The translations under genes and the position numbers were made by a program. Below the pieces are notes generated by a model. The model was not told the DNA's origin, ran no database searches, and was given only the letters and a program-made list of their open reading frames with translations. From positions 3,670 through 67,669 of the forward strand of contig JBOGZD010000001.1 of NCBI GenBank assembly GCA_050697155.1: 64,000 nucleotides of DNA, in the 5' to 3' direction. The number at the start of each line of letters is the position of its first letter. The stretch's first letter is position 1. Shown here one piece after another: positions 44,066-59,608 of this stretch. This stretch comes from Solirubrobacterales bacterium. GTDB lineage: Bacteria > Actinomycetota > Thermoleophilia > Solirubrobacterales > 70-9.

Positions 44066-45115
44066 GTGAAACCGGTTGTAGAGACAGCGTCCGAGCTTGC
44101 GGGTCCGCTCGCGGACGAGTGGGGGGAGCTCGCATCGGCGACCGCAGCGCCGCCATTCCTGCGACCGCGCTGGATCGACAGCTGGTGGCGCGCGTTCGGA
44201 TCCGGCACGCTCGTGATCTTGGTCCTTCGACGGGCGGGCCGCCTGGTCGGGGTCATGCCGCTGGCCCGCCGCCGCGGGGCCCTCGTCTCGACATCCAACT
44301 GGCACACGCCGGCGTTCTCCCCCGTCGTCGAAGACGAGGAGGCCCTCGCCGAGCTGGTCCGGGCGGCCCTCGAACGGACGCGGGTTCGGCTCGATCTCGC
44401 GTTCGTCGACGAGGCGTCGCCGGCAATCGAAACCTGTGTCCGGGTCAGTGAAGCCGGGGGATTTCGACTCTCAAGTCGGGCGCTCCTGCGGTCCCCCTAC
44501 CTGGACATCGAGGGCGACTGGCAGGCCTACGAGGATCAGCTGCCGTCGCGAAAGAAGAAGAAGTATCGGCGGTTCCGGCGGCGTCTGGATGAACAGGGGG
44601 AGGTATCCATCGAGCTCTCGGACGGAACCTCCGGGCTGAGCGAGCTCCTGCGCCAGGGATTCGAGATCGAGGCGGCGGGATACGAGGACAGGCCCGGGAC
44701 GGCGATCATCGCGCGGCCCGAGACGAAGCGCTTCTACACCGAGGTCGCGGAGTGGGCTGCTGAGCGAGGGTGGCTGCGGCTGTGGATGCTGCGGCTCGAC
44801 GGCGCGCCGATCGCATTCGGCTACGGGCTGGAACACGACCGCGTCTACTTCGACCTCAAGATCGGCTTCGAACCCAGGTACGCAGCGCTTGGACCCGGGG
44901 TGCTCCTGTTGAGGGAACGCCTCCAATATGCGTTCACAGCGTCGCTGAGGACGTACGAATTCCTCGGCGCCCCCGAACGGCACAAACTCGACTGGACGGA
45001 GACCCTGCGCGGGCGGATGAAGTTGCAGGTCTTCGCCCCGACGATCGGCGGCATCGCGAGCAGGATCGCGTGGGAGCGCGGGCGCCCGATCGCGAAGCGG
45101 CTGCTCAGGCGGTGA
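44066..45115 (+). CDS. CelD/BcsL-like (FemAB-fold) GNAT family protein, second copy
   Basis: LADEWGELASATAAPPFLRPRWIDSWWRAFG ... DWQAYEDQLPSRKKKKYRRFRRRL ... YFDLKIGFEPRYAALGPGVLL ... YEFLGAPERHKLDW. Confidence 0.7.
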   Translation: MKPVVETASELAGPLADEWGELASATAAPPFLRPRWIDSWWRAFGSGTLVILVLRRAGRLVGVMPLARRRGALVSTSNWHTPAFSPVVEDEEALAELVRAALERTRVRLDLAFVDEASPAIETCVRVSEAGGFRLSSRALLRSPYLDIEGDWQAYEDQLPSRKKKKYRRFRRRLDEQGEVSIELSDGTSGLSELLRQGFEIEAAGYEDRPGTAIIARPETKRFYTEVAEWAAERGWLRLWMLRLDGAPIAFGYGLEHDRVYFDLKIGFEPRYAALGPGVLLLRERLQYAFTASLRTYEFLGAPERHKLDWTETLRGRMKLQVFAPTIGGIASRIAWERGRPIAKRLLRR

Positions 45116-46271
45116 TCCGCCCCGCGAGGCGCTCGTAGATCCGAGCGACCTCGCGGACCGTGACCTCGATGTCGAACTCCCGCCGCCGCCGCTCCCTCGC
45201 CCGCCGACCCATCTGCTCTGCGCGCGCGCGATCCCCGAGCAGCTCCGCGATCGCGTCCGCGAGCGCCAGGTGGTCGCGACGCTCCACCAGCTGGCCGTGG
45301 ACCGCGGGCTCGATCAGGTCCGGAACCCCGCCTACCCGGGTCGAGACGACCGGCAGCCCGGCCTCCATGTACTCGAGGATCGAGAGCGGGGTGCCCTCGA
45401 AGTCAGACGAGGAGGCGGCAACGTCTACGCCTCTGAGCACGTCCGGGACGTCCGGCCGATATCCCAGCAAGGTCACGGTCCCCTCGAGTCCCAGCTCGGC
45501 GATCTGACGCTCCAACGCCCCTCGCTCCTCCCCCTCACCCACGATCAGGATGCGGACTCCAGGCACGCGGTCGGCGAGAACCCCCGCGGCGCGAACGAGC
45601 ACATCGAGCGCCTTCTGGGGTCGAAGCGAGCCAACGTTGCCGACCACCGGCGCCCCGGGCTCGATCCCGAGCTCGCGCCGCACGTCCCGCCCGCTGGGGG
45701 GCGGAAGAGGCGGGATCCCGTTCGGGACGAAGATCAGCTTCTCAGCCGGGATGCGCTCGATCTCGATCATCCGCCGGCGATCCTCTCTGGAGACGGTGAG
45801 GAAGGCATCCACGTTTCGCGCGATCAGGTTTCGATCGAGAAACCTCCTCATCGGCTGGCCGACGAACGACCAGGTGTGTTCGTGGGCGACCACCACCGGC
45901 GTCCGGGCGATCGTCCCGAGGACGGCGCCCCAGAGATTGGAGCCGAACTTGTGAGCGTGAAGCACGTCGATCCGCTCTCGCCTCAGCAGCGAGAGCAGCG
46001 GACGCCACGCTCGCAGGTCGCGTGCGGATCGACGCTCGAGGCCGAGGAACCGGACCCCGGCATCGTCGAGGCGACGGAGCGCCTCGGCGATCTCGGGCTG
46101 ACGCGCGGATCCAGGCGACCACCTGCTCACGCAAAGCGTCCGCTCGAACCGCTCCGGATCGAGTCGCGCGATGATCTCGTGCGCGAGCGTCTCTCCGCCG
46201 CCGGCGGGAAGGATGCCGTCGACGAGGGTGACCACCCGCAGCCTCGATCGGTGTCGGAGATCTCGATCCAT
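45105..46271 (-). CDS. GT4-family glycosyltransferase
   Basis: LRVVTLVDGILPAGGGETLA, SDFEGTPLSILEYMEAGLPVVSTRVGGVPDLI. Confidence 0.8.
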   Translation of the reverse strand: MDRDLRHRSRLRVVTLVDGILPAGGGETLAHEIIARLDPERFERTLCVSRWSPGSARQPEIAEALRRLDDAGVRFLGLERRSARDLRAWRPLLSLLRRERIDVLHAHKFGSNLWGAVLGTIARTPVVVAHEHTWSFVGQPMRRFLDRNLIARNVDAFLTVSREDRRRMIEIERIPAEKLIFVPNGIPPLPPPSGRDVRRELGIEPGAPVVGNVGSLRPQKALDVLVRAAGVLADRVPGVRILIVGEGEERGALERQIAELGLEGTVTLLGYRPDVPDVLRGVDVAASSSDFEGTPLSILEYMEAGLPVVSTRVGGVPDLIEPAVHGQLVERRDHLALADAIAELLGDRARAEQMGRRARERRRREFDIEVTVREVARIYERLAGRITA

Positions 46272-46291
46272 CTAGGCTACGGCGCGCGACG

Positions 46292-47299
46292 ATGCGGGGC
46301 CCTGGGGTTGAGAGCGCGCGACGGATCGCGGTCGGCCGTCGCTTGCCGTCCGGCCGGCCGACAAGGTTCGGAACCTCCGGCGACTTCACCGGAGGGGTCG
46401 GGCCGAACATCGAGCCCCGTGCCATTCGCGGTTACTACATCGATCTGCGGTCCAAGGCTCCGGCGCCGGGGTGGCCTCCGGACTGGTATACCGCCCCGCC
46501 GCGGAACTATGTCTGGATCACGCAATGGGGGCTCGCCTTCCACGAGCACCATCTCGAGGACGGGGACGAGGGGTGGTTGCAGGCCGCGCTTGCGGTCGGC
46601 GATCACCTGCTGGAGCTCCAGGAGCCCGAGGGGCGCCTGGTGGGCGGCTGGGTCCACCGTTTCCCCTACAAGCACACCTATCACCTCCCGCCGCCGTGGC
46701 TCTCCGGGATGGCTCAGGGCCAAGGCGCGAGCCTACTGGTTCGGCTGTACAGCGCGACCGGCGACGAGCGCTACGCGGAGGCCGCGATCCGCGCCCTGGA
46801 GCCAATGCGCCACTCGACACTCGACGGAGGCGTAGCCGGGGATCTCGGCGGCGGGTTCTTTCCCCAGGAGTATCCGACCAACCCGCCCGCGCACGTGCTC
46901 AACGGCGGCATCTTCGCGCTCTGGGGCTGTTACGACGCCGCCCTTGCCCTCGGCGACGACCTGGGCCGACAGCTCGCGGCCGAAGGGATCGCGACCCTCG
47001 CCGAGTCGCTGCCCAGGTGGGACACCGGGTACTGGTCCCGCTATGACCTCTTCCCGCACCCGCTCGCACACCTCGCCACCCCCATGTACCACCGCCTCCA
47101 CACCGACCAGCTGCGGGCGATGGCGTTGATCGACACGAATCCCGAGTTCAGCAGGACCGCTGAGCGGTTCGATGGCTACGCGCGCTCCCGCGTCAACGTC
47201 GGACATGCCTTTGCGCGCAAGGTGCTCTTCCGGCTCGCCGTCCCCCGCAACCGCTGGCTCGCCTTCCGAACGCCGTGGACGCGACGCTCGGGTCGATGA
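46292..47299 (+). CDS. D-glucuronyl C5-epimerase C-terminal-domain-like protein
   Basis: Blocks YVWITQWGLAFHEHHL, PPWLSGMAQGQGASLLVRLYSATGDERY and HVLNGGIFALWGCYD match my memory of the GLCE C-terminal domain (WxSAMAQGQAxSxLxRAY, LNGFxxxLxGLYD). Confidence 0.65.
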   Translation: MRGPGVESARRIAVGRRLPSGRPTRFGTSGDFTGGVGPNIEPRAIRGYYIDLRSKAPAPGWPPDWYTAPPRNYVWITQWGLAFHEHHLEDGDEGWLQAALAVGDHLLELQEPEGRLVGGWVHRFPYKHTYHLPPPWLSGMAQGQGASLLVRLYSATGDERYAEAAIRALEPMRHSTLDGGVAGDLGGGFFPQEYPTNPPAHVLNGGIFALWGCYDAALALGDDLGRQLAAEGIATLAESLPRWDTGYWSRYDLFPHPLAHLATPMYHRLHTDQLRAMALIDTNPEFSRTAERFDGYARSRVNVGHAFARKVLFRLAVPRNRWLAFRTPWTRRSGR

Positions 47300-48057
47300 A
47301 CGACATCCTCGTCCTCTGCTACCACGCGATCAGCGGAGACTGGGAGGCGAGCATCTCGGTGACGCCCGAGCGCTTCGAGGGACAGATTCGGGCGCTGCTC
47401 GAGCGCGGCTACCGCGGCGCGACCGTGAGCGAGGCGCTGACCGGGCCGCGAGAGGAAAAGACCCTGGTCGTGACCTTCGACGACGCCTATCGCTCCGTTG
47501 CCAGACACGCACGCCCGATCCTCGTCGGCCTCGGCGTGCCCGGGACCGTGTTCGTGCCGACCGCGTTCCCCGGGACCGAGCGGCCGATGTCGTGGCCGGG
47601 GATCCATACCTGGCTCGGCGGGCCCCACGAGCACGAGCTGGTTCCCTCGTCGTGGTCGGAGCTCGAGGCGCTCGCGGACGATGGTTGGGAGATCGGCTCC
47701 CACACGCGAACTCACCCGAGGCTTCCGCGGCTCGATGACGCCGCCCTTCGCGAGGAGCTCGAGGGGTCCCGTGCCGACTGCGAGCAGCGGCTCGGGATCC
47801 GCTGCCGCTCGATCGCATACCCCTACGGCGACTGCGACCCCCGAGTCGCAGCGGCCGCGCGCGTAGCCGGCTACGTCGCAGGGTGTGCGATGTCACGGCG
47901 GGTGGAGCGCCATGACCCGCTGCTTTGGCCGCGCGTCGCCATGTACGAGCGCGACCACGGCCGGCGCTTCGATCTCAAGGTGTCACCCGCGCTCAGGTAT
48001 GCCAGGGCCGGAGCGGCCTGGGCGATCCGTGGGACCTTGAAGCATCGGCGAGGATGA
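47296..48057 (+). CDS. CE4 polysaccharide deacetylase
   Basis: ATGA overlap with the upstream gene. Motifs TFDD, GSHTRTHP, IAYPYG. Confidence 0.85.
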   Translation: MNDILVLCYHAISGDWEASISVTPERFEGQIRALLERGYRGATVSEALTGPREEKTLVVTFDDAYRSVARHARPILVGLGVPGTVFVPTAFPGTERPMSWPGIHTWLGGPHEHELVPSSWSELEALADDGWEIGSHTRTHPRLPRLDDAALREELEGSRADCEQRLGIRCRSIAYPYGDCDPRVAAAARVAGYVAGCAMSRRVERHDPLLWPRVAMYERDHGRRFDLKVSPALRYARAGAAWAIRGTLKHRRG

Positions 48058-49577
48058 ACGAGACCGAGTCCCCTCGCGGCCTCACCGGGACGGTGGTCAG
48101 GGGGGTCAGCTTCGCCGGGGGCGGCTTCCTGCTCGCCCGCGGGATCACGTTCGCCGCCTACGTGGCGCTCGCGCGGCTGGTGACCCCGACCGAGCTCGGC
48201 CAGTTCACGGCCGGCACGATCCTGATCGCAATCGGCTTCCTGTTCGCCGAGTCCGGGATGGCCGCGGCGGTCATCCACCGGCGGGACCGGCTCGAGGAAG
48301 CCGCCGCGACGGCGGTGGTCGCAACCGTCCTCATCGGGATCACCACGGCGCTTCTCAACCTGGCGGCGTCGCCTCTGCTGGGGAGCTTCTTCGATGACAG
48401 CGCCACCGTCGCCGCCGTCGCGGCGGCGACGTCAGGGGTGCTGTTCCTAGGTTCCGCTCGCGTAGTCCCGAACGCTCTGCTCCAGCGGCGCTTCTCATTC
48501 CTACGCCGCATCGTCGTCGAGCCCGCATCGGCGCTCGCGTTCGCCGTGGGGGCGATCATCGCCACATCCGAGGGCATGGGCGTCTGGGGCCTCGTCGTCG
48601 GGCAGTACGCGTCGGCCGTCACCGACTTCATCCTCTCGTGGGGCCTCGTCCGCTGGAGGCCGAAGGCGCGCTTGGTGTCATTTGGGATGTGGCGCGAGCT
48701 GGTCGCCTACGCTCGCCACGTCCTCGTCGGGACCGCGATAAGGAGGATCGGGAACCGCATCCCGCTCGCCGCGGCCGGGGGGTTCGTGAGCGCTGCCGCG
48801 CTCGGCCAGTTCCAATACGCGACCCGGGTCGTCGGGGTGCCGTTCGCGTTTCTGGTCTCGGGGATCTCCTACGTCGTCTTTCCGGCCTTCGCGCGGATCT
48901 CCCACGACGCCCGGCGATTCGAGCCGGCCTTCATGCGCTCGTTCCGGTGGACGATGCTGGCCGCGGCTCCCATCGGGATGATCCTGCTCGTGCTCGGAGA
49001 GCCGTTCGCGGTGCTCGTCTTCGGGGAGCGCTGGGAGCAGGCCGGCGAGGCGACCCGAGCGCTGGCCCTGTTCGTGCCCGCCCAGATGGTCGCGCAGATG
49101 ATCGGTGAGGCATTCAAGGGCACGGGACACCCCGTGGAGCGAACCTGGGTCAACGCGATCGGCGTGCTCGCCGGGGTGATCGCAATGGCGGCGTTGATCC
49201 CGCCGTTCGGACTGATCGGCGTGGCGGTCGGGGTCTCGGTGGATGCGCTGGCGGGAGCGATCTCGTCGGTTCGCCGAGCACATCGGGCGATGGGGATTCC
49301 GATGCGCCCGATGCTGGCGGCGATCGCGGCGCCACTCCTGGCCACCGCGCCGATGGTTGGCGTCGTGCTCCCGCTGGACACGCTGCTCGTCGACGCTGGG
49401 GACCGAGGCACGGCGGCGGGCCTTGCCCTCCTGGTGGGTGAGGGCCTGGCCGGGCTCGCGATCTATGCCGCGGCAGTGCGTGCTTTGTCACCCGGGGTCA
49501 CCGGCGAGCTCGCCGCGCTGCTGCGAACTGGGCGCCGCGGCGGCGGCCAGCCGTCCCCGGTCGCGTGGGACGCCTGA
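48054..49577 (+). CDS. Wzx-type (MOP superfamily) polysaccharide flippase
   Basis: ATGA overlap with the deacetylase. About 14 TM segments. N-terminal RGVSFAGGGFLLARGITFAAYVALARLVTPTELGQF is typical of polysaccharide-biosynthesis (PST) proteins. Confidence 0.75.
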   Translation: MNETESPRGLTGTVVRGVSFAGGGFLLARGITFAAYVALARLVTPTELGQFTAGTILIAIGFLFAESGMAAAVIHRRDRLEEAAATAVVATVLIGITTALLNLAASPLLGSFFDDSATVAAVAAATSGVLFLGSARVVPNALLQRRFSFLRRIVVEPASALAFAVGAIIATSEGMGVWGLVVGQYASAVTDFILSWGLVRWRPKARLVSFGMWRELVAYARHVLVGTAIRRIGNRIPLAAAGGFVSAAALGQFQYATRVVGVPFAFLVSGISYVVFPAFARISHDARRFEPAFMRSFRWTMLAAAPIGMILLVLGEPFAVLVFGERWEQAGEATRALALFVPAQMVAQMIGEAFKGTGHPVERTWVNAIGVLAGVIAMAALIPPFGLIGVAVGVSVDALAGAISSVRRAHRAMGIPMRPMLAAIAAPLLATAPMVGVVLPLDTLLVDAGDRGTAAGLALLVGEGLAGLAIYAAAVRALSPGVTGELAALLRTGRRGGGQPSPVAWDA

Positions 49578-49591
49578 ACCGCGGCTCGGCC

Positions 49592-50497
49592 TCAGTCGAG
49601 CCAAGCGTCGAGATCGATGCCGAGCAGAGCGCGTAGCTCCCCAACCTGCTCGGCGATCAGTGGGCGGAGTGGCTCGATGACGGCTGGGGCAACGGGCGGT
49701 CGCTCCTCGAACCGCGTGTTCCATCGCCTGAGCACCGCTCCCCCGCGACGGCGCCACTCCTGCGAGCTCACGGCGTGCATCATCCGGCGAAATGGCTGGG
49801 GCGGGCGGCCGATGAGGCGGCTCATCGCCCGGCTCCTGGGTCGCTTGTTCGGGTTGACCACCTCGAAGGCAGGCGAGAAACTCGAGTCCACGCCGAGAAC
49901 CGCGCACGTGTCGCGGAAGGCGCCCGCGGTGTCGTCGCGGAATCGGTCGTAGACGATCGCGTGGACCCGCTCGCGGCCGAACAGGTCAAGGTAGCGGCGG
50001 AGCTGCTCTCCGTAGCGAACCGCGGAGCGATAGGAGCGCGGTGGGAATCCGGGCGGCGTGCCCGCCCGCTCGCGCTCATCATCGAGCGCCAGCGCGCGCT
50101 CGAAGTCGGGTTCCGGCTCAAGCCCTACGAAGACGAATTGCGAATGCAGCGAAGGCAGCATCTCGACCGGGTTGCGCAGCATGACCAGGATGTCCGCCTC
50201 CGGGCAGAACTCCTTGATCTCCCTCGCCGCGGTCGACGAGTACAGGTACCAGACCGAGGCCTCGCCGCGCCTGCGCCTGCCCTCGAGCCCCTCGAAGTAG
50301 CCCAGGTACTCGTCCCTGGTCGGCGGCCGTGCACCGGGCTTGACCCACATCCGCGGATACAGGTCGGTGGCGAAATGGTGGCTCTCCTTGTGCGGGCACA
50401 TCCCGATCTCGGGGTGCTGGCCGAGGAAGTCGGCCATCGCGGTCGTCCCGCATTTCGGCGCTCCGATGAGCAAGAAATCAGGGCCGACGGGCGTCAT
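49592..50497 (-). CDS. PAPS-dependent sulfotransferase (Sulfotransfer_1-like)
   Basis: 5'-PSB loop FLLIGAPKCGTTAM and 3'-PB region LVMLRNPVEMLPSLHS. ATG at 50497 preferred: the first 13 codons after the track start at 50584 are A/T-rich at third positions. Confidence 0.75.
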   Translation of the reverse strand: MTPVGPDFLLIGAPKCGTTAMADFLGQHPEIGMCPHKESHHFATDLYPRMWVKPGARPPTRDEYLGYFEGLEGRRRRGEASVWYLYSSTAAREIKEFCPEADILVMLRNPVEMLPSLHSQFVFVGLEPEPDFERALALDDERERAGTPPGFPPRSYRSAVRYGEQLRRYLDLFGRERVHAIVYDRFRDDTAGAFRDTCAVLGVDSSFSPAFEVVNPNKRPRSRAMSRLIGRPPQPFRRMMHAVSSQEWRRRGGAVLRRWNTRFEERPPVAPAVIEPLRPLIAEQVGELRALLGIDLDAWLD

Positions 50498-50562
50498 CGC
50501 CACCAGCGTAGTGATCGCCAGCGCGTCGGAGGCGCTCAGGGAGGGATCGGCTGCTTCACCGC

Positions 50563-51579
50563 CTAACGGATCAGATCCGGGCATCGGCTGTCCTCCGCCA
50601 AGCGCAGATCGGCCGCCTCGCGATCGACGAACAGCGGGTCCGCGTGGACGTTGTCGATCGCCTCGAAACCGATGGCTGGGCTCTGGACACCGCCCGACTC
50701 CAGGCTCCGCGCGCCGCCGAAGACGCAGTTGCTTCGGACGAGGTTCCCGGTCCCCTCACGACCGTCCGGCCAAAACGATTCGACGTTGAAGCGGAGGTTC
50801 GAGTTCGTGATCACGTTGTCCTCCACCAGGTTGTCCTCGGAGACCTCGCCATCCTCGCCCGAGAACAGGATCCCTTGTCCGTTGCCGTCGATCACGTTCC
50901 CGGTGATCACCGAACCGTCGGCGTCCGGATAGAGCTGGACCCCGCGGTCCGCGTTCGAGTAGATCCAGTTGCCGCGGATCACGGTCCGGTCGGCGTGGGC
51001 GACGTAGATGCCGTGATCGTGGTTGGTGGCCGGGAGGCGGCCGCAGTCATGGATGCGATTGCGTTCGATCACCGTGCCAACCGCGTCGCCGTAGTCGTCG
51101 TCGCCGAGCACGAAGCAGATCGCCGTGTGGTCATTGGTGACGTCGTTGCCGCGAAAACGGACCGCGTCGCCGTTCACGGTCGGGCTCGGGAGCCCGCGCG
51201 TGTTGCGACCGTTGAGGGTCAGGTTCTCGATCGTCACCGCGTCGCCTCCCTCCCTGATCCAGAGCCGGCCTTCGAGCGTCGCCCGCTCTCCCGGATAGCT
51301 GCTCAGGGTCACGCCGCGGGCGGAGATCGCGATGTCGTCCTCGGAGCGGTGGACGCCATCGCGCAGGCAGGCCGTCTGCTGCGGAGCGAGCGCGGCGACG
51401 AAGTCGTCAACCGAGCCGCCTGGCTTCGCCACCACATCGCAGACGAGGTTGCTGGATCCCATCGGCGCCGACGCTTCATCCGGGTCATCGCCCCATGAGA
51501 TCAGGGCGGCCGCCGCGCCGGCAGCGATCAGCGCGGCGAACGCAACCAGGTACGCGAGCCCACCACGCGGCACGTTCAT
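50563..51579 (-). CDS. Secreted right-handed parallel beta-helix protein, paralog 1 (BH1)
   Basis: Signal peptide from ATG 51579. Periodic N-x-I/V-x-x-N coils. Conserved core HDCGRLPATNHDHGIYVAHADRTVIRGNWIYSNADRGVQLYPDADGS. Confidence 0.65.
   Translation of the reverse strand: MNVPRGGLAYLVAFAALIAAGAAAALISWGDDPDEASAPMGSSNLVCDVVAKPGGSVDDFVAALAPQQTACLRDGVHRSEDDIAISARGVTLSSYPGERATLEGRLWIREGGDAVTIENLTLNGRNTRGLPSPTVNGDAVRFRGNDVTNDHTAICFVLGDDDYGDAVGTVIERNRIHDCGRLPATNHDHGIYVAHADRTVIRGNWIYSNADRGVQLYPDADGSVITGNVIDGNGQGILFSGEDGEVSEDNLVEDNVITNSNLRFNVESFWPDGREGTGNLVRSNCVFGGARSLESGGVQSPAIGFEAIDNVHADPLFVDREAADLRLAEDSRCPDLIR
50879..51108. repeat. 230-bp segment identical to 51904..52133
   Basis: Compared base by base by eye; offset 1025 bp. 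It lies inside BH1 and encodes the conserved NHDHGIY core. Confidence 0.9.
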
Positions 51580-51587
51580 GTTGGAGG

Positions 51588-52577
51588 CTAGCGTTGCAGC
51601 AGCCGGCTGCAGGGGCTGCGATCGCGGAGGCGGAAATCCGCCCCGTTGCGATCGTAATAGTGGGGATTGGCAATGACGTTGCCGAACGCCGAGTACCCAA
51701 GCGCGGGGGTCTCCAGCCCGCCATCCTGATCGCCTCTCGCACCACCGAACAAGCAGTTCCGCCGCACCACGTTGTCCGTCCCGATCGGGCCTTGCCAATG
51801 GTCCTCGACGTTGTGCCGGAGGATCGAGTTGGTAATCGCGTTGCGGGCGACCAGGTTGCGGTCAGAGGAGAGATCGCCGGAGCCCGCGAAGAGGACCCCC
51901 TCGCCGTTGCCGTCGATCACGTTCCCGGTGATCACCGAACCGTCGGCGTCCGGATAGAGCTGGACCCCGCGGTCCGCGTTCGAGTAGATCCAGTTGCCGC
52001 GGATCACGGTCCGGTCGGCGTGGGCGACGTAGATGCCGTGATCGTGGTTGGTGGCCGGGAGGCGGCCGCAGTCATGGATGCGATTGCGTTCGATCACCGT
52101 GCCAACCGCGTCGCCGTAGTCGTCGTCGCCGAGGATCACGCAGCTCGATGAGAGATTGCGGATCCGATTGCCCTCGAGCCGCACGCGGTTCGCCGTCACG
52201 GTAGGGCTCGGCAGGCCCCGAGCGTTGGCGCCGTTCAGGTTCAGGTTGCGGATCGAGACCCGATCGGCCCGCCGTGTGATCCAGATGCGACCGACGAGAC
52301 GGGCCGGCTTTCTCCGGCGAAGACTGGTCAGCGCCACTCGCGGCCGCGTGAACTTGATGTCTCGCCGGTTGGCGCGATAGAGCCCGGGCGCGAGACACCC
52401 CGTTTCGCCGCGCCGGAGCGAATCCACGAACGCGCGGGGGCTCGCACCCACCGTCGCCACGCGGTCGCACCGCCCCTTCCCGGGGTCGGTTGCTGGCGCC
52501 GCGTCAGGCGACGCGAGGCCGGCTAACGTCGCGACCGCGAACGCGGCGCGCACGGATCTGAGCCACGGAGACTGCAC
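51588..52577 (-). CDS. Secreted right-handed parallel beta-helix protein, paralog 2 (BH2)
   Basis: GTG start and signal peptide (AAFAVATLAGLASPDAA). Same core as BH1. Confidence 0.65.
   Translation of the reverse strand: MQSPWLRSVRAAFAVATLAGLASPDAAPATDPGKGRCDRVATVGASPRAFVDSLRRGETGCLAPGLYRANRRDIKFTRPRVALTSLRRRKPARLVGRIWITRRADRVSIRNLNLNGANARGLPSPTVTANRVRLEGNRIRNLSSSCVILGDDDYGDAVGTVIERNRIHDCGRLPATNHDHGIYVAHADRTVIRGNWIYSNADRGVQLYPDADGSVITGNVIDGNGEGVLFAGSGDLSSDRNLVARNAITNSILRHNVEDHWQGPIGTDNVVRRNCLFGGARGDQDGGLETPALGYSAFGNVIANPHYYDRNGADFRLRDRSPCSRLLQR
51904..52133. repeat. 230-bp segment identical to 50879..51108
   Basis: Second copy, inside BH2. Confidence 0.9.
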
Positions 52578-52619
52578 CCGAGCGGGGCAGCCTACAGCCG
52601 CCCGCTGGGCGGGGCGCCG

Positions 52620-54563
52620 TCAGCCGACCACCGTGATGCCAACGGGACGCGACCGGCCCGCGCCCTTGACCTTGGCGCGGAAGTACACGTTTCCGGCGTC
52701 CCCCACCAGACGCGGGGTGACCTCGAAACGGCGCCGAGACACGCGATCGACCGTGAAGCGCTTCCAACGGCCGTCACGCCATCTGTGGATCACTGCCTTC
52801 GATCCGGCGCGGCGGGCGGCACGCGACGACTTGATCCTGCCGCTGAGCTCGACGTACCCGCCAGGCTGGATCGTGGACGTGCTGCTCTTGAACACGAGAC
52901 GCTTGCCGCTCCCACCGCCGCCGGGCTTGGATGTCGGGCCGGACAGCTTGACCTTGAACCCACGGCTGGCGGCGGTCTGGTCGACGTTGCCGGCGGCGTC
53001 ACGCGCGCGGACTGCGAAGTTGTGGGCGCCCGGCCCAAGGGCTGCGTAGCTGTGCGGGCTGGTGCAGGCTGTCCAAGCCGCCCCGTCCAGACGGCACTCG
53101 AAGCTGGACTCGGACTCCGAGGAGGCAAATCCGAACGTTGCGACATCGGTCGTGATCGTCCCCGACGGCCCCGAGGTGATCGTCGTCTCTGGCGGTGAAC
53201 TGTCGGCGGGCGGGTCCTCGGTGGGCGGATCCTCAGCCGGCGGGGGATCGGGAAGATCGACGACGAAGACGGCGCTCGCCGGAGACTGGTCGACGGTGCC
53301 GGCGGCGTCGGTCGCCCGAACCTCGAACGTGTGCTCGCCCGGTGCCAGCGCCGAGTAGGACTTGAGGCTCGTGCACGCTGCCCAAGTAGCGCCGTCGAGG
53401 CGGCATTCGAAGCTCGAGTCGGGCTCCGAGGAGGAGAAGCCGAAGCTGGCTGTATCAGTGGCGATCGTGCCCGAGGGGCCGGAGGTGATGGTCGTCTGCG
53501 GGGCCGTGGTGGCGGGTGGCTCCTCGGTCGGCGGCGGGCCGGTATCAGACAGCATTCGCCCGCAGCTCGAGTCCGGGTCGACGGTGTAGTCACCGCGCGC
53601 CGGATCGACGAAGCTCGGCTTCGCGACCACGTTCGAGGACGCCGTGAAACTCGCCTTCTCTATGCCGCTGTCGTCGGAGTCGCCTCGATACGAGCTGCCT
53701 GAGGTCCAGACACAGTTGTTGCGCGCGACGTTTCCGACGCCCCGTGGCCCCTGCCAGTGGTCCTCGATGTTGTACCGGATGGTCGAATTCACGATCACGT
53801 TGTTTTCGACCACGTTGTCGTCAGACGACGAGCTCGTGCCCCCGGAGAACAGGACGCCCTGGCCGTTGGCGTCGATGACGTTTCCGACGACGAGGCTGCC
53901 GTCCGCGTCCGGGTAGAGCTGGACCCCCCGGTCCGCGTTCGCGTAGATCCAGTTGCCACGGATCACGGTCCGGTCGGCGTGGGCGACGTAGATGCCGTGA
54001 TCGTGGTTGGTGGCGGGAAGCCTGCCGCAGTGGTGAATGCGGTTGCCCTCGATCAGGGTGCGGTCGGCGCGACCGTAGGAGCCATGACCGAGGTTGAAGC
54101 AGATCCCCGTGTGTGCGTTGGTGACGTCGTTACCGCGGAAGACCGTGTCGTGTGCGTGCACGGTCGGGCTGGGCATCCCGGTGGGGTTGCGGCCATCGAG
54201 GTCCAGGTTCTCGACCCTGACCCCGTCGGCTCCCGGGGCCACCCAGATCCGGCCGACGATCTTCGCGCGCTCGCCCGGGTAGCTCGTGAGCACGATCTCG
54301 CGCGTCGTGATCTTGATCAGGTCGTTGAGGGCGAATACGCCCGAGCGGAAGCATCCAGTCTGCCCCGGCGACAGCGACCCGGCGAGCTTGACGGCGCTTT
54401 GAAAGGGGGCCGCGGCGGCTCCTGTGGCACTGTCGGAGCCGGTCGGGGACGCATAGCGGTCACATGACACCGCGGCTGCCGTTTCCTGCGCGCGAACCGA
54501 GGCGGTCGCAAGACCGATGACGAGCAGGATTGCGATGAGCATCGACAGGCCGCGCCTTGACAT
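52620..54563 (-). CDS. Secreted beta-helix protein, paralog 3 (BH3), with two Ig-like repeats and a basic C-terminal domain
   Basis: GGAG lies 6 nt before the ATG. Signal peptide, a beta-helix core (HHCGRLPATNHDHGIYVAHADRTVIRGNWIYANADRGVQLYPDADGS), two ~80-aa repeats, and an Arg/Lys-rich C-terminal ~95 aa. Confidence 0.75.
   Translation of the reverse strand: MSRRGLSMLIAILLVIGLATASVRAQETAAAVSCDRYASPTGSDSATGAAAAPFQSAVKLAGSLSPGQTGCFRSGVFALNDLIKITTREIVLTSYPGERAKIVGRIWVAPGADGVRVENLDLDGRNPTGMPSPTVHAHDTVFRGNDVTNAHTGICFNLGHGSYGRADRTLIEGNRIHHCGRLPATNHDHGIYVAHADRTVIRGNWIYANADRGVQLYPDADGSLVVGNVIDANGQGVLFSGGTSSSSDDNVVENNVIVNSTIRYNIEDHWQGPRGVGNVARNNCVWTSGSSYRGDSDDSGIEKASFTASSNVVAKPSFVDPARGDYTVDPDSSCGRMLSDTGPPPTEEPPATTAPQTTITSGPSGTIATDTASFGFSSSEPDSSFECRLDGATWAACTSLKSYSALAPGEHTFEVRATDAAGTVDQSPASAVFVVDLPDPPPAEDPPTEDPPADSSPPETTITSGPSGTITTDVATFGFASSESESSFECRLDGAAWTACTSPHSYAALGPGAHNFAVRARDAAGNVDQTAASRGFKVKLSGPTSKPGGGGSGKRLVFKSSTSTIQPGGYVELSGRIKSSRAARRAGSKAVIHRWRDGRWKRFTVDRVSRRRFEVTPRLVGDAGNVYFRAKVKGAGRSRPVGITVVG
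52947..53495 (-). repeat. Tandem duplication encoding two Ig-like modules within BH3
   Basis: Residues 357-436 (53256..53495) and 460-539 (52947..53186) are TTITSGPSGTIxTDxAxFGFxSSExxSSFECRLDGAxWxACTSxxSYxALxPGxHxFxVRAxDAAGxVDQ. They are separated by a Pro/Asp/Glu linker. Confidence 0.8.
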
Positions 54564-54574
54564 CCGGGTCTCCT

Positions 54575-54652: not shown

Positions 54653-54858
54653 GCCCGATGAACGGGGCCCCTCTTGTCGCGAGTCCTATCGGGCCGCTCG
54701 CGCGCGGCGGTGAGCTCGGGTCGCCGCGCTGGACGTTGGTTTGATGCAGGAATTCGCCCAGAACCTGCAGCGAAACCACCCACAACCTGCAACCGCGCGG
54801 TTGTCGCGCGGCGCAGCCGGGCCGGGTAACCGGCGGCCCGATAGCGACCTGGTGGCGG

Positions 54859-56118
54859 TCAGCGCCTGACCTTGACCCGCACCGGCCGCGAGCGGCCGAT
54901 GCCCGGCACCTTCGCGCGTAGGCGGAGCCTGCCGGCCGACGAGCGCGCGCGCTTGCGGATCGTGAACCTGTTGCGCGTGTTGACCCGAGCGCGCGCGAAG
55001 CGCTTCCATCGGCCTCGCTCGCGCACCTGGATCACGGCCCGCCTGCCGCCTCCCGAGACGGCGCCCTCGAGCTCGCCCCGCAGCCTGAAGCGCTGCTGCG
55101 GTTGGACCCGGCGGCGATTCGCCGAGAGCTTGACCTGAGCACGCGACGGTGCCCCGCCGAGACAGGGACTGCTCGCCTGGAGGTTGTAATCGGGCTTCGA
55201 GGCGTCGACGTAGTACGGGTCCGCGACCCGGTTGTCGACCGCGACGAATCCGTCCTGCGGCGATTCGATCCCGCCGTCGCCATCGTCGCGAGCACCGCCC
55301 GAGACGCAGTTGGCACGCGCCACGTTGCCGTAACCGGATTCACCCTGCCAGTGGGACTCGATGTTGTAGCGGATGGTCGAGTTCGTGATCACGTTCTTCT
55401 CGACCACGTTGTTGTCAGACGCGGAGTCGTCGCCGCCGGCGAAGAGCACCCCCTGGCCGTTGCCGTCGATCACGTTGCCGGTCACCAGCGATCCGTCGGC
55501 GTCGGGGTAGAACTGGATGCCGCGATCGGCGTTGCCGTAGATCCAGTTGCCTCGGATCACCGTGTTACGCGCCTCGGCGAGGTAGATCCCGTGGTCATGG
55601 TTGGTCGCCGGCAGGTCGCCACAATCGTGGATTCGGTTGCCCTCGATGAGCACGCCGTCCGGAGGCGGGGAATCCTCGTAGGCGTCGACGTGCACGCAGA
55701 TCGCGGTGTGGTGGTTGGTGATGTCGTTGTTTCGCAGGACCACCCGGTCGGCGTAGATGATCGGACCGAGCAGGCCCTCCGGGTTGCGGCCGTCGAGGTT
55801 CAGGTTCTCGATCACGGCGTCGTCGGCCGTCTCGTTGAGCCGGAGCCGGCCCTGGAGCGTCGCGAGCTCGCCCGGATAGGACGTGAGCCGGATCGCCGAG
55901 GTGTTCACGATGAACTGGTCCGCGACGTAGGTTCCGGCGCGCACACACCCGGTCTGTCCGGGGGCAAGGTCGTCCAGCAGCTCCTGGACGCTGTCGCCCG
56001 AGGTCGCCACCAGGTCGCAACCGGCGTCCTGCCCAAGCGCGCCGGCGGGTGCCATCCCACCCGCCGCGAGCGCGAGCGCAACAGTCGCGACCAATACCGA
56101 CATGTGCCTGAACGGCAC
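54859..56118 (-). CDS. Secreted beta-helix protein, paralog 4 (BH4), with basic C-terminal domain
   Basis: GTG at 56118 lies 6 nt after AAGGAGA (alternative ATG at 56103). Signal peptide, core HDCGDLPATNHDHGIYLAEARNTVIRGNWIYGNADRGIQFYPDADGS. The C-terminus is homologous to that of BH3 (GRWKRF ... LRAKVPGIGRSRPV). Confidence 0.7.
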   Translation of the reverse strand: MPFRHMSVLVATVALALAAGGMAPAGALGQDAGCDLVATSGDSVQELLDDLAPGQTGCVRAGTYVADQFIVNTSAIRLTSYPGELATLQGRLRLNETADDAVIENLNLDGRNPEGLLGPIIYADRVVLRNNDITNHHTAICVHVDAYEDSPPPDGVLIEGNRIHDCGDLPATNHDHGIYLAEARNTVIRGNWIYGNADRGIQFYPDADGSLVTGNVIDGNGQGVLFAGGDDSASDNNVVEKNVITNSTIRYNIESHWQGESGYGNVARANCVSGGARDDGDGGIESPQDGFVAVDNRVADPYYVDASKPDYNLQASSPCLGGAPSRAQVKLSANRRRVQPQQRFRLRGELEGAVSGGGRRAVIQVRERGRWKRFARARVNTRNRFTIRKRARSSAGRLRLRAKVPGIGRSRPVRVKVRR

Positions 56119-56364
56119 GCGCGTCTCCTTTCGCCTCCGGTGCCCGTTGGAGGCGGTATCGGCGCCGGTTCGCGATCGCGCCGTGGGCCGCGGGCCGGTC
56201 GGACGGATGTCGTAGTGCAACGCCTGGACTCCCCTGGGGCTCACGCGGCACGCGTCCCGTCCGTGGGCCACGCTCCGCTGTCCAACGAGTGCGACGGCGC
56301 ATCCGGCGACCGTCTAAGGGAGAGTTTCTACCGCAAAACGGTTAGCCGTCTTGCAGTAGGTCTG

Positions 56365-57576
56365 TCACGCAAGCCGTGTCGCGGCGGTCTCCTCGAGCAG
56401 ATCCGCCATCCGCGCGGCCTGGTCCTCGCGTAGATGCGCTGCCGCGAAGTCGCGCCCGCGCGCGGCGAGCTCGCCGGCCAGCGCGCGGTCGTCGCGTAGC
56501 TCGCGTACCGCCGCGGCCAGCGCAGTCGGGTCGCCATGGGGTACCGCAATGCCGACTTCGGCCGCCTCGATGACACGCCGCAACTCGCCCTGGCAGGCAG
56601 CGATCACCGGACGCCCCACCGCGCAGTAGTCATAGAGCTTCGAGGGCACCGTCCACTCTTGGCGCTCGGAGACGAGCAGGGCGTCGGCCGCCCGCAGATG
56701 CCGCGCGACCTCGGATGGCGGCATGAGCTTGCGCAGCTCGACGGCCCCGGGCCGGGCCGTCGAGGCGAGGCGCTCGACGTCTGCCCGCCGCGGTCCCTCG
56801 CCGATGATGAGGAGGGTCGCCCCATCGCCGAGGCGGCCGGCGGCATCGATCGCGACCTCGAGCCCGTGCGCGAGTCCGATGTTGCCGGCGTACGCCCAGA
56901 TGAACCGCTGCTCGGGGAGACCGAGCGTGGTGCGCTCGGGTGGGGTCTCGCCGGCTGCCAGCCATTCGCGGGTGGTGCCGTTGCTGATCACCTCGATCCT
57001 GCTTCCGGCCGGGGACCGCTCGGCGACGTGGCGGCGGAACGCGTCGTTGACCGTCACCGTTGCGGCTGCCCTGCGGTAGAGGCCCCGCTCCAGGCGCTCG
57101 GCCAGGGCGATCACGCGCCGGTTCGACAGCTCGCCGAGGGCGACCGCCGACCCCGGCCAAGGATCGCGCACGTCGAGCACCCAGGGTGCCCGGTGGCGGC
57201 GGGCGAGCACTGCCCCCGCCGCCCCGACGGGCAGGGGCGGCGAGCTGGCGAGGATGACGTCGGGGCGTGCCAGCAGCGACCCTGCCGCCGACGCCATCGC
57301 GGCGTACGTACCGTAGAAGCCGAGCCGCGTCGCGAGGGTCTTGCGCGGGCGCGCGAAGACCCAGACGTACCGCACCAACGCGCCGTCGACCTCGCGCCTG
57401 ATCACCGCCGCGCCGCGATACCCCGGTTCGATCACGCCCCGGGGATGGTTGGGCACGGCGCAGAGCACTTCGACGTCATGCCCGCGTCGAACGAGCTCCC
57501 CGACGAACGGCTCGAGCCGAAACCTGGCAGCGGTCACCTCGGGGGCGAAGTGCTGGGTCAGGATCAGCGCTCTCAT
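56365..57576 (-). CDS. GT4-family glycosyltransferase (WbuB-like)
   Basis: MRALILTQHFAPEVTAARFRLEPFVGELVRRGHDVEVL start. C-terminal nucleotide-sugar binding half. Confidence 0.75.
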   Translation of the reverse strand: MRALILTQHFAPEVTAARFRLEPFVGELVRRGHDVEVLCAVPNHPRGVIEPGYRGAAVIRREVDGALVRYVWVFARPRKTLATRLGFYGTYAAMASAAGSLLARPDVILASSPPLPVGAAGAVLARRHRAPWVLDVRDPWPGSAVALGELSNRRVIALAERLERGLYRRAAATVTVNDAFRRHVAERSPAGSRIEVISNGTTREWLAAGETPPERTTLGLPEQRFIWAYAGNIGLAHGLEVAIDAAGRLGDGATLLIIGEGPRRADVERLASTARPGAVELRKLMPPSEVARHLRAADALLVSERQEWTVPSKLYDYCAVGRPVIAACQGELRRVIEAAEVGIAVPHGDPTALAAAVRELRDDRALAGELAARGRDFAAAHLREDQAARMADLLEETAATRLA

Positions 57577-57595
57577 CCGGCCGGGCGAGGCTTCA

Positions 57596-58573
57596 GTGAC
57601 CGGCGCCGCGCTGTCGGAGGACGCCCAGCACGCGGCGGGATTCTACGTTGCTACCGTGGCGCCGCGAGTGGTGGGCGCGGATCGATCCGAGGGGCAGAGG
57701 CCGATCGTCATCGTCGGGACCGGTCGTTGCGGCTCGACCCTCTTGCACCGGGTGCTCGCCCGCCACGACGATCTCGGCTGGATCTCGAGTTGGAACGAGG
57801 TGTTTCCGGGCCAGCCGTGGCTCGCCGCCTTCTCCCGTCTCTACGAGTGGCGTCTCCCTGCTGGGGTCAAGGAGTCGAAGCCCTTTCCGAAGCCGTTCGA
57901 GGCATATCGGTTCTGGGAGCACTACCTCCCCGGGTTCTCGCGGCGCGATCGACCGCCCAGCGCCGAGGATGTCGACGTGGCGGGGATCGGACCCGTCCGC
58001 GACGCCACGGCAACTGTCCTCGACCATCACGGCCGCGATCGGTTGCTGGTGAAGGTGACGGGTTGGTCGCGCATCGCGTATTTCGACCGCATCTACCCGG
58101 ATGCCCGGTTCGTGTCGCTGCGGCGCGACCCACGTTCGGTCGTCAGCTCGTGGATCAAGGCGGGTTGGCTCGACGTCACGAGCCCCCCCGAGAGCGCGAG
58201 CTGGCAGTGGGGCCACGTTCCGCCGCCCTACCTCGAGCTCTGGCGCGAGCTCGGCGGCGGTCCCGCGCTCTCGGTTGCGCTCAAGATCCGGCTCGATCTC
58301 GACGACCTCGCCCGGAACGCGGCGCTTTTTCCCGACCGCTGCCACGAGCTTCGGTACGAGGAGCTGATCGAACAGCCGCGGCTGAGCCTGCGAGCGCTGT
58401 GTGACTTCGCCGGACTGCCGTGGACACGGTCGTTCGCCGACGTCATCGGCTCGGTCGGGTTCCACGACCGATCCGAGAAGTGGCAGCGATACCTCGGCAC
58501 CGACGACGCGAAGCGCGTGCTCGCGTTCATCCGGCGAAGCGAAGCCGTGGGGGTCACCGACCGCGTGCGCTGA
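57596..58573 (+). CDS. PAPS-dependent sulfotransferase (Sulfotransfer_3-like)
   Basis: 5'-PSB IVIVGTGRCGSTLLHRVL and 3'-PB FVSLRRDPRSVVSSW. The start is uncertain: GTG at 57596 is the first in-frame start clear of the divergent GT4. Confidence 0.7.
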   Translation: MTGAALSEDAQHAAGFYVATVAPRVVGADRSEGQRPIVIVGTGRCGSTLLHRVLARHDDLGWISSWNEVFPGQPWLAAFSRLYEWRLPAGVKESKPFPKPFEAYRFWEHYLPGFSRRDRPPSAEDVDVAGIGPVRDATATVLDHHGRDRLLVKVTGWSRIAYFDRIYPDARFVSLRRDPRSVVSSWIKAGWLDVTSPPESASWQWGHVPPPYLELWRELGGGPALSVALKIRLDLDDLARNAALFPDRCHELRYEELIEQPRLSLRALCDFAGLPWTRSFADVIGSVGFHDRSEKWQRYLGTDDAKRVLAFIRRSEAVGVTDRVR

Positions 58574-58603
58574 GCGTCGTCGGTTCGGCCGAGGATTCCG
58601 ACG

Positions 58604-59608
58604 ATGGCATCCGTACACCTGCTCTCCGCGGCGCGCGAGGGAGCCGGAGCGCACCCCAAGGCACGCTTGGATCTCGAGCAGATGCGGGCCGCGGCCCGCG
58701 CCGACCGACTGGGCCTCCACGACGTCGTCGAGGACCCGCGCAGGGCCGACCTGATCCTGTTCGTTGAGACGTCGGTGGCCGCCGGGCACTACTTCGAGCT
58801 CGTCAGGGCTCACCCCATCTATCGGGAGTTCACATCGAAGAGCTATCTGTTCTCCGCGACCGACAAGGTGATCCCGTTCCTGCCCGGCGTCTACGCATCG
58901 ATCGAACGACGCTGGTACTGGCCGTCCTGGACGCGGTCGGGTCACTACGTCGGGGTCAAGGAGGAGGGCGCCCTGCGGTACGACCCCGACCATCGCCCCT
59001 CGCGGCTGTTCTCGTTCGTCGGCAGGGCCAACATGCACCGGGTACGCGAGCGCATCATGCGGCTGCGCCACCCTGACGCGATCCTGATCGACACCCAGGC
59101 GGAAGCGCTCGCGGACCGGCAAGGGGAATCCCTCCCGCTGCCCCCCGAGGAGTTCGTCGCGCGCTATGTGCGTGCGATCAACGACTGCGCCTTCGTGCTC
59201 TGTCCGCGAGGCGGAGGCGCCGCGAGCTTCAGGCTGTTCGAGACGATGATGCTCGGCCGCGTCCCGGTGATCATCTCGGACCAGTGGGTTCCGCCGGTCG
59301 GCCCCGACTGGGATCGCGTCAGCGTCCGGGTCGGCGAACGGCGCATCGAGGAGATCCCGCGACTGCTGGAGGCGCACGCTGCGGACGCCCGGGCAATGGG
59401 CGAGGCGGCACGAGCGACGTGGCTGGAGTGGTTCGCCCCGGACACCTCCTTCCACCGCATCGTGGACTGGTGCCTCGAGCTGGCGCGCTCAGCGCCGCGG
59501 CGGAGCGGGGTGCGCCGGTACGCACCCCACCTGCAGATGCTCCGCCCCTATCACTCGGCCCGCTGGGTCGCCAAGCGGATCGGGCGCGGCGGCCCGGCCG
59601 CGCTCTAG
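58604..59608 (+). CDS. Exostosin-family (GT47-like) glycosyltransferase
   Basis: RLFSFVGRANMHRVRERI ... CAFVLCPRGGGAASFRLFETMMLGRVPVIISDQWVPP, the exostosin C-terminal signature. Confidence 0.7.
   Translation: MASVHLLSAAREGAGAHPKARLDLEQMRAAARADRLGLHDVVEDPRRADLILFVETSVAAGHYFELVRAHPIYREFTSKSYLFSATDKVIPFLPGVYASIERRWYWPSWTRSGHYVGVKEEGALRYDPDHRPSRLFSFVGRANMHRVRERIMRLRHPDAILIDTQAEALADRQGESLPLPPEEFVARYVRAINDCAFVLCPRGGGAASFRLFETMMLGRVPVIISDQWVPPVGPDWDRVSVRVGERRIEEIPRLLEAHAADARAMGEAARATWLEWFAPDTSFHRIVDWCLELARSAPRRSGVRRYAPHLQMLRPYHSARWVAKRIGRGGPAAL

Follow-up and report, generated by a model that had tools for sequence, protein, structure and literature searches.

In a 64,000-nucleotide stretch (hereafter the window) of the genome of a soil bacterium of the Solirubrobacterales (Actinomycetota, Thermoleophilia), we found a ~31-kb chromosomal Wzx/Wzy surface-polysaccharide locus, at ~28.3-59.6 kb, whose genes include a GLCE-family uronyl C5-epimerase, a CE4 de-N-acetylase translationally coupled to it, two sulfotransferases (ST1 and ST2) and a GT47 glycosyltransferase (Table 1). 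Wzx/Wzy loci are a known kind; what is new here is a glycosaminoglycan (GAG)-style modification kit inside one, with a chemistry that we predict. The product is most likely a heteropolysaccharide that is sulfated and contains both a C5-epimerised uronic acid and an amino sugar stripped of its N-acetyl group; it would resemble GAGs in its modifications and not in its backbone or assembly. We hold this explanation, together with the mechanism laid out below, with moderate confidence, as the probable one. An earlier note on this DNA had proposed a heparan-sulfate-like pathway with an EXT-type polymerase, yielding a sulfated, C5-epimerised acidic polysaccharide via Wzx/Wzy. The polysaccharide part of that proposal is still the best reading and is strengthened by recurrence of the gene set in relatives and by epimerase-deacetylase fusions, while the EXT polymerase did not stand. 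"Heparan-sulfate-like pathway" is also an overstatement, because nothing indicates a heparosan backbone of glucuronic acid and N-acetylglucosamine (GlcA-GlcNAc), and no evidence in the locus supports N-sulfation. Probably, the locus makes a sulfated polymer reminiscent of heparin, not true heparan sulfate (HS), and not by the animal route.

A GLCE-family C5-epimerase

Since the window has a G+C content of ~70%, genes were called throughout the 64 kb by third-position GC together with Pfam; Pfam was run on nearly all window genes, and motif scans were added for supply genes. All eleven peptide motifs quoted by the earlier note are present in the open reading frames (ORFs) that it named. The epimerase is the strongest element of the locus. 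Its match to Pfam C5-epim_C (PF06662) scores 151.4 bits against a cut-off of 23.3 and spans profile positions 5-186 of 188, and the three sequence blocks first used to recognize it lie at residues 73, 134 and 202. By sequence it matches the solved GLCE proteins of zebrafish (2.3e-27) and human (1e-24) in the PDB, with 33-37% identity to the GLCE catalytic domain. The catalytic residues of human GLCE are E499, Y500, N510, Y560 and Y578 (PMC13308652); E193, Y194, N204, Y251 and Y266 of the window protein align with them, and all five positions are invariant in an alignment of 22 epimerase homologues.

The structure comparison agrees with the profile search. A Foldseek search with an AlphaFold (AF2) model of the epimerase (pLDDT 86.6) returned the GLCE structures 4PXQ and 6HZZ at the top (E 1e-13, root-mean-square deviation 1.6-1.9 Å over ~213 columns), and the next folds were nine orders of magnitude weaker. 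The model covers only residues ~313-578 of the GLCE chain (TMt 0.37), and the beta-hairpin and beta-sandwich domains that complete the three-domain GLCE architecture are missing from the 335-aa protein. The epimerase belongs to the GLCE domain family but does not have the full-length architecture of the animal enzyme; it is a true GLCE-family catalytic domain, with predicted epimerase activity.

The family is modest in size but widespread: among 1.84 billion 50%-identity cluster representatives, 4113 relatives were found at E <= 1e-3 and 180 at E <= 1e-30. An identical epimerase is encoded on a contig of assembly GCA_975375225.1. To examine genomic context, we scanned one genome per species, which gave 267 relatives, and examined the best 80 with 10-kb flanks, using the window proteins as phmmer queries. 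These 80 related loci are nearly all from metagenome-assembled genomes (MAGs) of Solirubrobacterales or Thermoleophilia.

Prokaryotic pfam06662 proteins were catalogued in 2011 by Raedts et al., who listed two in Conexibacter woesei, noted a linkage to glycosyltransferases and expected variant specificities among the prokaryotic homologues; at that time no bacterial GAG-like polymer was known to be sulfated or C5-epimerised (PMC3068255). The same survey lists a 323-aa pfam06662 protein for Escherichia coli O112ab and Shigella boydii 15 (PMC3068255), whose O-antigens contain L-iduronic acid (L-IdoA) (PMC3068255, PMC7685785). This protein, "Gae", resembles the window epimerase in being short and single-domain and in coming from organisms with a heteropolysaccharide, an O-antigen with a pentasaccharide repeat; it differs in its Gram-negative O-antigen setting, in which no sulfotransferases or coupled CE4 are reported (PMC3068255, PMC7685785). 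By 2026, a single bacterial GLCE homologue had been assayed, that of Bermanella marisrubri RED65 (PMC13308652). It too is a pfam06662 protein whose alignment suggests a GLCE-like mechanism, but it has 448 aa against 335 here and was assayed only on animal-derived substrates (PMC13308652).

With so little biochemistry in the family, the PF06662 protein might not convert GlcA to IdoA at all, and instead act on another uronate (ManA/GulA, GalA/AltA or an N-acetyl-aminouronic acid) or on a UDP-sugar. RED65 being the only assayed bacterial member, the expectation of variant specificities, and an E. coli O-antigen review that draws a UDP-L-IdoA pathway through Gae, as a proposal only (PMC7685785), all leave room for this. 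So do the lack of GLCE's two N-terminal domains and the dehydrogenases encoded at related loci L021 and L061. These carry a GGYCLTKD motif, which we take to be associated with UDP-N-acetylhexosamine (UDP-HexNAc) dehydrogenases. The fully conserved catalytic pentad and a barrel that superposes on GLCE at <2 Å argue the other way, as do fusions of the epimerase to a CE4 domain, which point to a glycan substrate with an N-acetyl amino sugar; Pfam describes CE4 enzymes as polysaccharide deacetylases. On balance we regard a different substrate as improbable, and continue with GlcA in a glycan as the likely one.

Coupling to a deacetylase and the site of modification

The gene after the epimerase encodes a CE4 de-N-acetylase, as had been suggested from three motifs, which we located at residues 67, 141 and 181. 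The Polysacc_deac_1 profile matches it above cut-off (79.2 bits), and it keeps both the TFDD (Asp-Asp) and HTRTH (His-x3-His) metal/catalytic motifs. Its start is most likely at 47296, a correction that fits the reported ATGA overlap at 47296-47299 of the epimerase stop with the CE4 start; a second ATGA, at 48054-48057, joins the CE4 stop to the Wzx start. Outside the window the two domains are found in one chain: databases hold fusion proteins of ~580-630 aa with C5-epim_C at the N terminus and CE4 at the C terminus, the same order as the window gene pair. Such fusions (for example P0242, P0061, P0243 and P0241) are common in metagenomes and hint at how members of the bacterial family as a whole recognise their substrates. 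Of the 80 related loci, 62 encode CE4 within 10 kb of the epimerase; the two genes are adjacent in 51 of the loci, and 19 have both in one reading frame. In the light of this distribution, the deacetylase-epimerase pair reads as the conserved, ancient core of these loci.

A deacetylase of the same type operates in another surface-polysaccharide pathway as HfsH, which is presumably the Caulobacter holdfast deacetylase. The window enzyme is not its orthologue, matching the NCBIfam HfsH model ("oligosaccharide deacetylase") only weakly (2.4e-7, 30.7 bits against an equivalog cut-off of 400), and neither an epimerase nor sulfation is known to us from the holdfast pathway.

None of the epimerase, CE4, ST1, ST2 and GT47 proteins has a transmembrane (TM) segment or signal peptide. 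The long ST1 ORF opens with a hydrophobic N-terminal stretch, but ST1 orthologues start downstream of it, and ST1 most likely begins at Met30 of that ORF, ~50497. The sulfate donor 3'-phosphoadenosine 5'-phosphosulfate (PAPS) is cytoplasmic. Given this and the lack of export signals, the modifications fit best on a repeat unit that is still lipid-linked and has yet to be flipped by Wzx, so that the modifying enzymes most likely act in the cytoplasm. If they do, the steps must run in another order and at another site than in the Golgi pathway, which works at the level of the polymer.

Two sulfotransferases and a sulfotransferase-rich clade

Both proteins called sulfotransferases in the earlier note proved to be so by Pfam profile and by intact 5'-phosphosulfate-binding (5'-PSB) and 3'-phosphate-binding (3'-PB) motifs. 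ST1 matches Sulfotransfer_3 (40.4 bits) and Sulfotransfer_1 (33.6 bits), both above cut-off, and carries GAPKCGTT at residue 41 and RNPVEMLPS at residue 137. ST2, which most likely starts after 57576, at ~57596, matches Sulfotransfer_3 at 88.7 bits, also above cut-off, with GTGRCGST at residue 126 and RRDPRSVVSS at residue 261. Searched singly against the PDB, ST1 found 3RNL, an uncharacterised bacterial structure (2e-44). A family profile built from ST1 and six orthologues again ranked 3RNL first (8e-61), followed by the HS 3-O-sulfotransferases 3-OST-1, -3 and -5 and the N-sulfotransferase (NST) domain of NDST1 (5.5e-6 to 1.3e-4), with cytosolic SULTs (7.5e-3) and TPST (0.03) further down. 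ST1 would accordingly lean toward GAG-type carbohydrate sulfotransferases, the HS 3-OST and NST enzymes being nearest among the functionally characterised solved structures.

At least one sulfotransferase is encoded in 15 of the 80 related loci, and at least 14 of the 80 also combine it with an epimerase and a CE4. In a neighbour-joining tree the window epimerase groups with those of L003 to L008, L010, L011 and L079, and all five members of this clade with enough flank carry sulfotransferases, one to four by homology to ST1 or ST2. L003, L004, L007 and L010 have at least three to four such genes each, partly confirmed by Pfam; ST2 has orthologues scoring 400-455 bits in these four loci and in L013 and L018. 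From this pattern sulfation is best described as a clade-specific, stably kept addition to the core pair. We also observed that the sulfotransferase genes of L003, L004, L007 and L010 lie downstream of Wzx, at ~13-20 kb of each locus, belong to at least three subtypes and outnumber the two of the window.

A lone GT47 domain in a Wzx/Wzy assembly line

The GT47 protein had been identified by an exostosin signature, which lies at residue 197, and the family assignment holds. The match to Exostosin_GT47 (60.5 bits, above cut-off) is confined to the nucleotide-sugar-binding C-terminal half of the profile, positions 170-293 of 293. By sequence it is weakly similar to EXT1 and EXT2 in the PDB (7.6e-6), and an AF2 model (pLDDT 77.7) has EXT1, EXT2 and EXTL3 first in Foldseek (4e-9, TMq ~0.54) across its whole length. 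Its 594 homologues, mostly of ~330 aa, form a large bacterial family. The further claim of an EXT-type polymerase failed. The 334-aa protein has no GT64 domain, and Pfam found no GT64-type family among the window genes; a single domain of this kind cannot be an EXT-type alternating co-polymerase. GT47 enzymes use diverse donors, hence the presence of one does not imply transfer of GlcA.

Wzz/kinase, Wzy and Wzx genes had been reported at 30930..33894 and 48054..49577, and Pfam bears them out. Flippase, polymerase, co-polymerase and several glycosyltransferases are clustered in the window, and the arrangement is kept in related loci, with Wzy in 63 of 80 and Wzz in 61-62. The presence of Wzx, Wzy and Wzz together with three GT4 genes leaves the locus outside Wzy-independent, processive polymerisation. 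The GT47 protein would thus be one of four glycosyltransferases, with Wzy polymerising units that the three GT4 enzymes and GT47 build.

This assembly line bears directly on whether the locus could make a true HS analogue, that is, a heparosan-type GlcA-GlcNAc backbone laid down with an EXT-like enzyme and modified in the metazoan order of N-deacetylation/N-sulfation, C5-epimerisation and O-sulfation. Every metazoan HS enzyme class does have a homologue here (GT47, deacetylase, GLCE and an NST/3-OST-like sulfotransferase), and the tight deacetylase-epimerase coupling parallels the dependence of GLCE on prior N-deacetylation/N-sulfation (PMC13308652). Yet the GT47 is single-domain, lacks GT64 and so cannot be an alternating co-polymerase; GT47-like genes are present in only 11 of the 80 related loci and absent from most, sulfotransferase-rich ones included; three GT4 genes with Wzx/Wzy imply a multi-sugar repeat unit; and N-sulfation is unsupported. 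The bacterial heparosan systems of E. coli K5 and Pasteurella, moreover, use glycosyltransferases of other kinds. We consider a true HS analogue very improbable, and read the GT47 protein as one of several interchangeable glycosyltransferases that supply a Wzx/Wzy heteropolysaccharide.

Five compact relatives (L003, L004, L005, L007 and L010) illustrate such a locus: sortase, GT4, Wzz, Wzy, GT4, epimerase, CE4 and Wzx are followed by sulfotransferases and beta-helix genes. We detected no GT47 within 10 kb in them, nor the 11-kb accessory block that separates Wzy from the second GT4 gene (GT4b) in the window; Wzy abuts GT4b there.

The accessory module and possible re-acylation of the freed amine

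The 11-kb block has a FemAB-like GNAT (PF13480) and ATP-grasp pair at each end. Its interior holds an isocitrate/isopropylmalate-type dehydrogenase (Iso_dh), an RraA-like aldolase, a PhyH dioxygenase, an orphan 332-aa ORF and three small membrane ORFs. Parts of the module occur in 3-8 of the 80 related loci. It probably adds amide-linked substituents, and its enzymes may synthesise an uncommon acid or amino acid and join it on through an amide bond.

These genes raise an alternative for the whole locus, in which CE4 frees an amine for re-acylation or aminoacylation by the FemAB-like GNAT and ATP-grasp enzymes and O-sulfation takes place at unrelated positions, giving an amide-decorated acidic heteropolysaccharide with little GAG likeness beyond its epimerised uronate. 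Besides the two PF13480 and ATP-grasp pairs inside the locus, this is favored by PF13480 homologues in 28 of the 80 related loci, by the pairing of CE4 and epimerase without sulfotransferases in most loci, and by a Wzx/Wzy cluster of Actinoplanes that also pairs a deacetylase with a BioF2-like acetyltransferase (PMC13390465). The compact closest relatives speak against it, as they have neither Fem nor ATP-grasp genes beside their CE4, epimerase and sulfotransferases (at least three to four); amidation of the uronate carboxyl is an equally possible role for the ATP-grasp ligases. As an account of the locus we think it unlikely, though the least unlikely of the alternatives, and it is compatible with a sulfated, C5-epimerised polymer rather than exclusive of it. 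That polymer is the product that we retain below.

Proposed mechanism and its standing

Protein families, catalytic residues, missing export signals, gene coupling and conservation among genomes are what the sequences show; the order of steps below, with its sugars, its sulfate positions and its lipid-linked substrate, is what we infer. At the cytoplasmic face, a priming transferase (perhaps the upstream Bac_transf enzyme) would begin a repeat unit carried by undecaprenyl phosphate, and three GT4 enzymes and one GT47 would extend it. Still in the cytoplasm, CE4 would strip the N-acetyl group off an amino sugar, and the GLCE-type epimerase would invert C5 of the neighboring hexuronic acid, most likely GlcA to L-IdoA. 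The two PAPS-dependent sulfotransferases would then add sulfate, at N or O positions, and the ATP-grasp and FemAB-like enzymes of the window genome may contribute amide-linked groups. Wzx would flip the finished unit, Wzy polymerise it and the Wzz/kinase protein set chain length. Outside the cell, four secreted beta-helix paralogues would probably trim or remodel the polymer.

Several observations weigh against this explanation. Sixty-five of the 80 related loci have no sulfotransferase within 10 kb, most of them with epimerase and CE4 present, for which reason we treat sulfation as an add-on and not as intrinsic to the core. The ST2 profile finds CurM sulfotransferase and TPSTs as its nearest solved relatives, weakly, and these are not carbohydrate sulfotransferases. 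Supply genes are scarce: the window has no cysDN, cysC or ugd by Pfam of nearly all genes and motif scans, as had been noted before, and strict and loose motif scans found no adenosine 5'-phosphosulfate (APS) kinase or ATP sulfurylase in the window or the 80 related loci, nor did a ugd turn up in the related flanks. A nucleotide-sugar 6-dehydrogenase, which we count as support for a uronic acid where it occurs, lies within 10 kb in only 4 of the 80, and the window has no source of UDP-GlcA. This gap is real but no refutation, since genes for uronic-acid and PAPS supply are commonly unlinked. Re-acylation, in place of sulfation, is a possible fate of the amine left by CE4. The GLCE of animals acts only on substrates six or more sugars long (PMC13308652), a length that a repeat unit on its lipid carrier may not reach; in the E. 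coli review, epimerisation is placed at the UDP-sugar level instead, likewise as a proposal (PMC7685785). Finally, the organism is an uncultured MAG, and the polymer chemistry is predicted from genes alone.

Compared with the metazoan HS pathway (NDST, GLCE, the 2-, 3- and 6-OSTs and EXT1/2), the window locus shares a GLCE catalytic-domain homologue with its conserved pentad, a deacetylase coupled to the epimerase, a GT47-fold glycosyltransferase and one sulfotransferase nearest to NST/3-OST structures. It differs in lacking GT64 and a co-polymerase, with Wzx/Wzy repeat-unit assembly instead; in an epimerase without the beta-hairpin and beta-sandwich domains of GLCE; in a CE4 that is separate or fused to the epimerase, not to a sulfotransferase; and in enzymes that are apparently cytoplasmic and soluble, as against Golgi-lumenal.

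Sulfated polysaccharides are known from a few other bacterial genera (PMC11625862). Synechan of Synechocystis PCC 6803, the product of the xss genes, is a proven sulfated Wzx/Wzy exopolysaccharide with two sulfotransferases (PMC8205485), and in actinomycetes such polymers are a prediction, for the wps-1 cluster of Actinoplanes missouriensis (PMC13390465). Like the window locus, xss and wps-1 are Wzx/Wzy clusters with a polysaccharide co-polymerase and two sulfotransferases of different subfamilies, and sulfation is presumed to take place on the lipid-linked unit in the cytoplasm (PMC8205485, PMC13390465); wps-1 is moreover actinobacterial and has an enzyme with an "HS-sulfotransferase domain". 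Both clusters lack a C5-epimerase and a coupled deacetylase, and synechan, unlike the product predicted here, is based on neutral sugars and has no uronic acid, while sulfation of the wps-1 product is predicted. Our literature searches found no paper on the combination of epimerase, CE4 and sulfotransferase, and those on PF06662 and on Solirubrobacter with sulfotransferase returned nothing on a locus of this type.

The window locus and the at least 14 comparable related loci are a concrete, testable candidate for a sulfated, C5-epimerised bacterial polymer. We suggest only tentatively that uncultured soil Solirubrobacterales of one clade produce a polysaccharide that is de-N-acetylated, contains L-IdoA and is multiply sulfated. 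In that case a bacterial polymer would carry both hallmark GAG modifications, installed in the cytoplasm on a lipid-linked repeat by a minimal GLCE domain that in many cases is joined in one chain to its deacetylase partner, and the deacetylase-then-epimerase logic of HS biosynthesis would appear to predate or parallel the animal pathway. The compact and soluble, predicted-cytoplasmic set, comprising the 335-aa epimerase, the epimerase-deacetylase fusions and the NST/3-OST-like sulfotransferases, could serve non-animal synthesis of heparin-type molecules.

Locus layout and neighboring genes

The gene order is GT4, sortase, Wzz/P-loop kinase, Wzy, the accessory block, GT4, C5-epimerase, CE4, Wzx and ST1, followed by four beta-helix proteins, GT4, ST2 and GT47 (Table 1). 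The locus is bounded by argG (25592-26893, minus strand) and argD-argB-argJ-argC (60005-63987, minus strand), and so splits the arginine biosynthesis genes into one on one side and four on the other. In L010, argG (1531-2787) likewise stands beside the sortase end, which argues that the chromosomal site is conserved. It looks like a conserved hypervariable site similar to those of O-antigen loci. We found no support for a recent island, given that the argG-side site is common to L010 and the core gene order to many genomes.

Table 1. Coordinates of the polysaccharide locus and other features in the 64-kb window
Feature	Position	Strand	Remarks
GLCE-family uronyl C5-epimerase	46292..47299	+	335 aa, alpha-barrel domain only, no signal peptide
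CE4 de-N-acetylase	47296..48057	+	253 aa, predicted cytoplasmic, translationally coupled to epimerase
ST1 (Sulfotransfer_1/3)	49592..50497	-	Long ORF 49592-50584; start inferred from orthologues
ST2 (Sulfotransfer_3)	57596..58573	+	Approximate start; long ORF from 57341 overlaps GT4c
Stand-alone GT47 (exostosin-fold) glycosyltransferase	58604..59608	+	334 aa
Wzz chain-length determinant fused to P-loop (BY-kinase-like) ATPase	30930..32486	+	Pfam Wzz + AAA_31/ParA
Wzy polymerase	32422..33894	+	Pfam Wzy_C 77 bits; ~10 TM peaks
Wzx flippase	48054..49577	+	Pfam Polysacc_synt_3 157.5 bits; ~10 TM peaks
GT4a	28296..29465	-	Pfam Glycos_transf_1 123 bits; orthologue in 73/80 related loci
GT4b	45105..46271	-	Pfam Glycos_transf_1 125 bits; divergent from epimerase gene; orthologue in 76/80 related loci
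GT4c	56365..57576	-	Pfam Glyco_trans_4_4 + Glyco_trans_1_4
Accessory 11-kb module	33928..45115		Between Wzy and GT4b
Four tandem secreted right-handed beta-helix paralogues	50563-51798, 51588-52577, 52620-54563, 54859-56271	-	Pfam Beta_helix/NosD
Candidate priming phosphoglycosyl transferase	14326..15759	-	Pfam Bac_transf 192 bits; outside locus
Orphan ORF	26894-28276	-	460 aa, third-position GC 0.89; between argG and first GT4; present in 2/80 related loci
Signalling cluster	1075-2181, 16412-17191, 18748-19848, 21001-22617		

The four beta-helix paralogues have signal-peptide-like N termini, from which we expect them to act outside the cell. They are 47-60% identical to one another and have in common the motif HDCGxLPATNHDHGIY; a 266-nt block that is 96% identical between the first two genes suggests gene conversion. 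The third paralogue carries two Ig-like repeats, and the third and fourth have a Lys/Arg-rich C-terminal domain in common. Homologues occur in 35-40 of the 80 related loci. Searches gave no PDB sequence match and, in NCBIfam, generic NosD/parallel-beta-helix matches only. The proteins contain no LPxTG or LAxTG motif, and the neighboring sortase is probably syntenic rather than functional.

The Wzz/kinase protein shows two groups of TM peaks. No initiating transferase is encoded within 28-60 kb, and the Bac_transf gene, ~12.5-15 kb upstream of the locus, is the sole one found in the window; its enzyme is only inferentially tied to the locus. At 12200-16153 this gene and a second Wzy_C-like gene stand beside a small ORF ending in LPFTG and a hydrophobic tail, likely a sortase substrate; another LPFTG ORF lies at 4511-4981.

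The orphan at 26894-28276 has no match in Pfam, NCBIfam or the PDB by sequence, and that at 41819-42817 none in Pfam or NCBIfam. A plus-strand ORF at 59642-60478 opens with a poly-Val run and is mostly antisense to argD, for which reasons it is almost certainly an artefact and not a gene. Upstream of the locus, the signalling cluster encodes an HDOD-LuxR and a GAF-LuxR protein, a GGDEF diguanylate cyclase and an HD-type (HD_5) phosphohydrolase, which could place polysaccharide production under the control of cyclic di-GMP.

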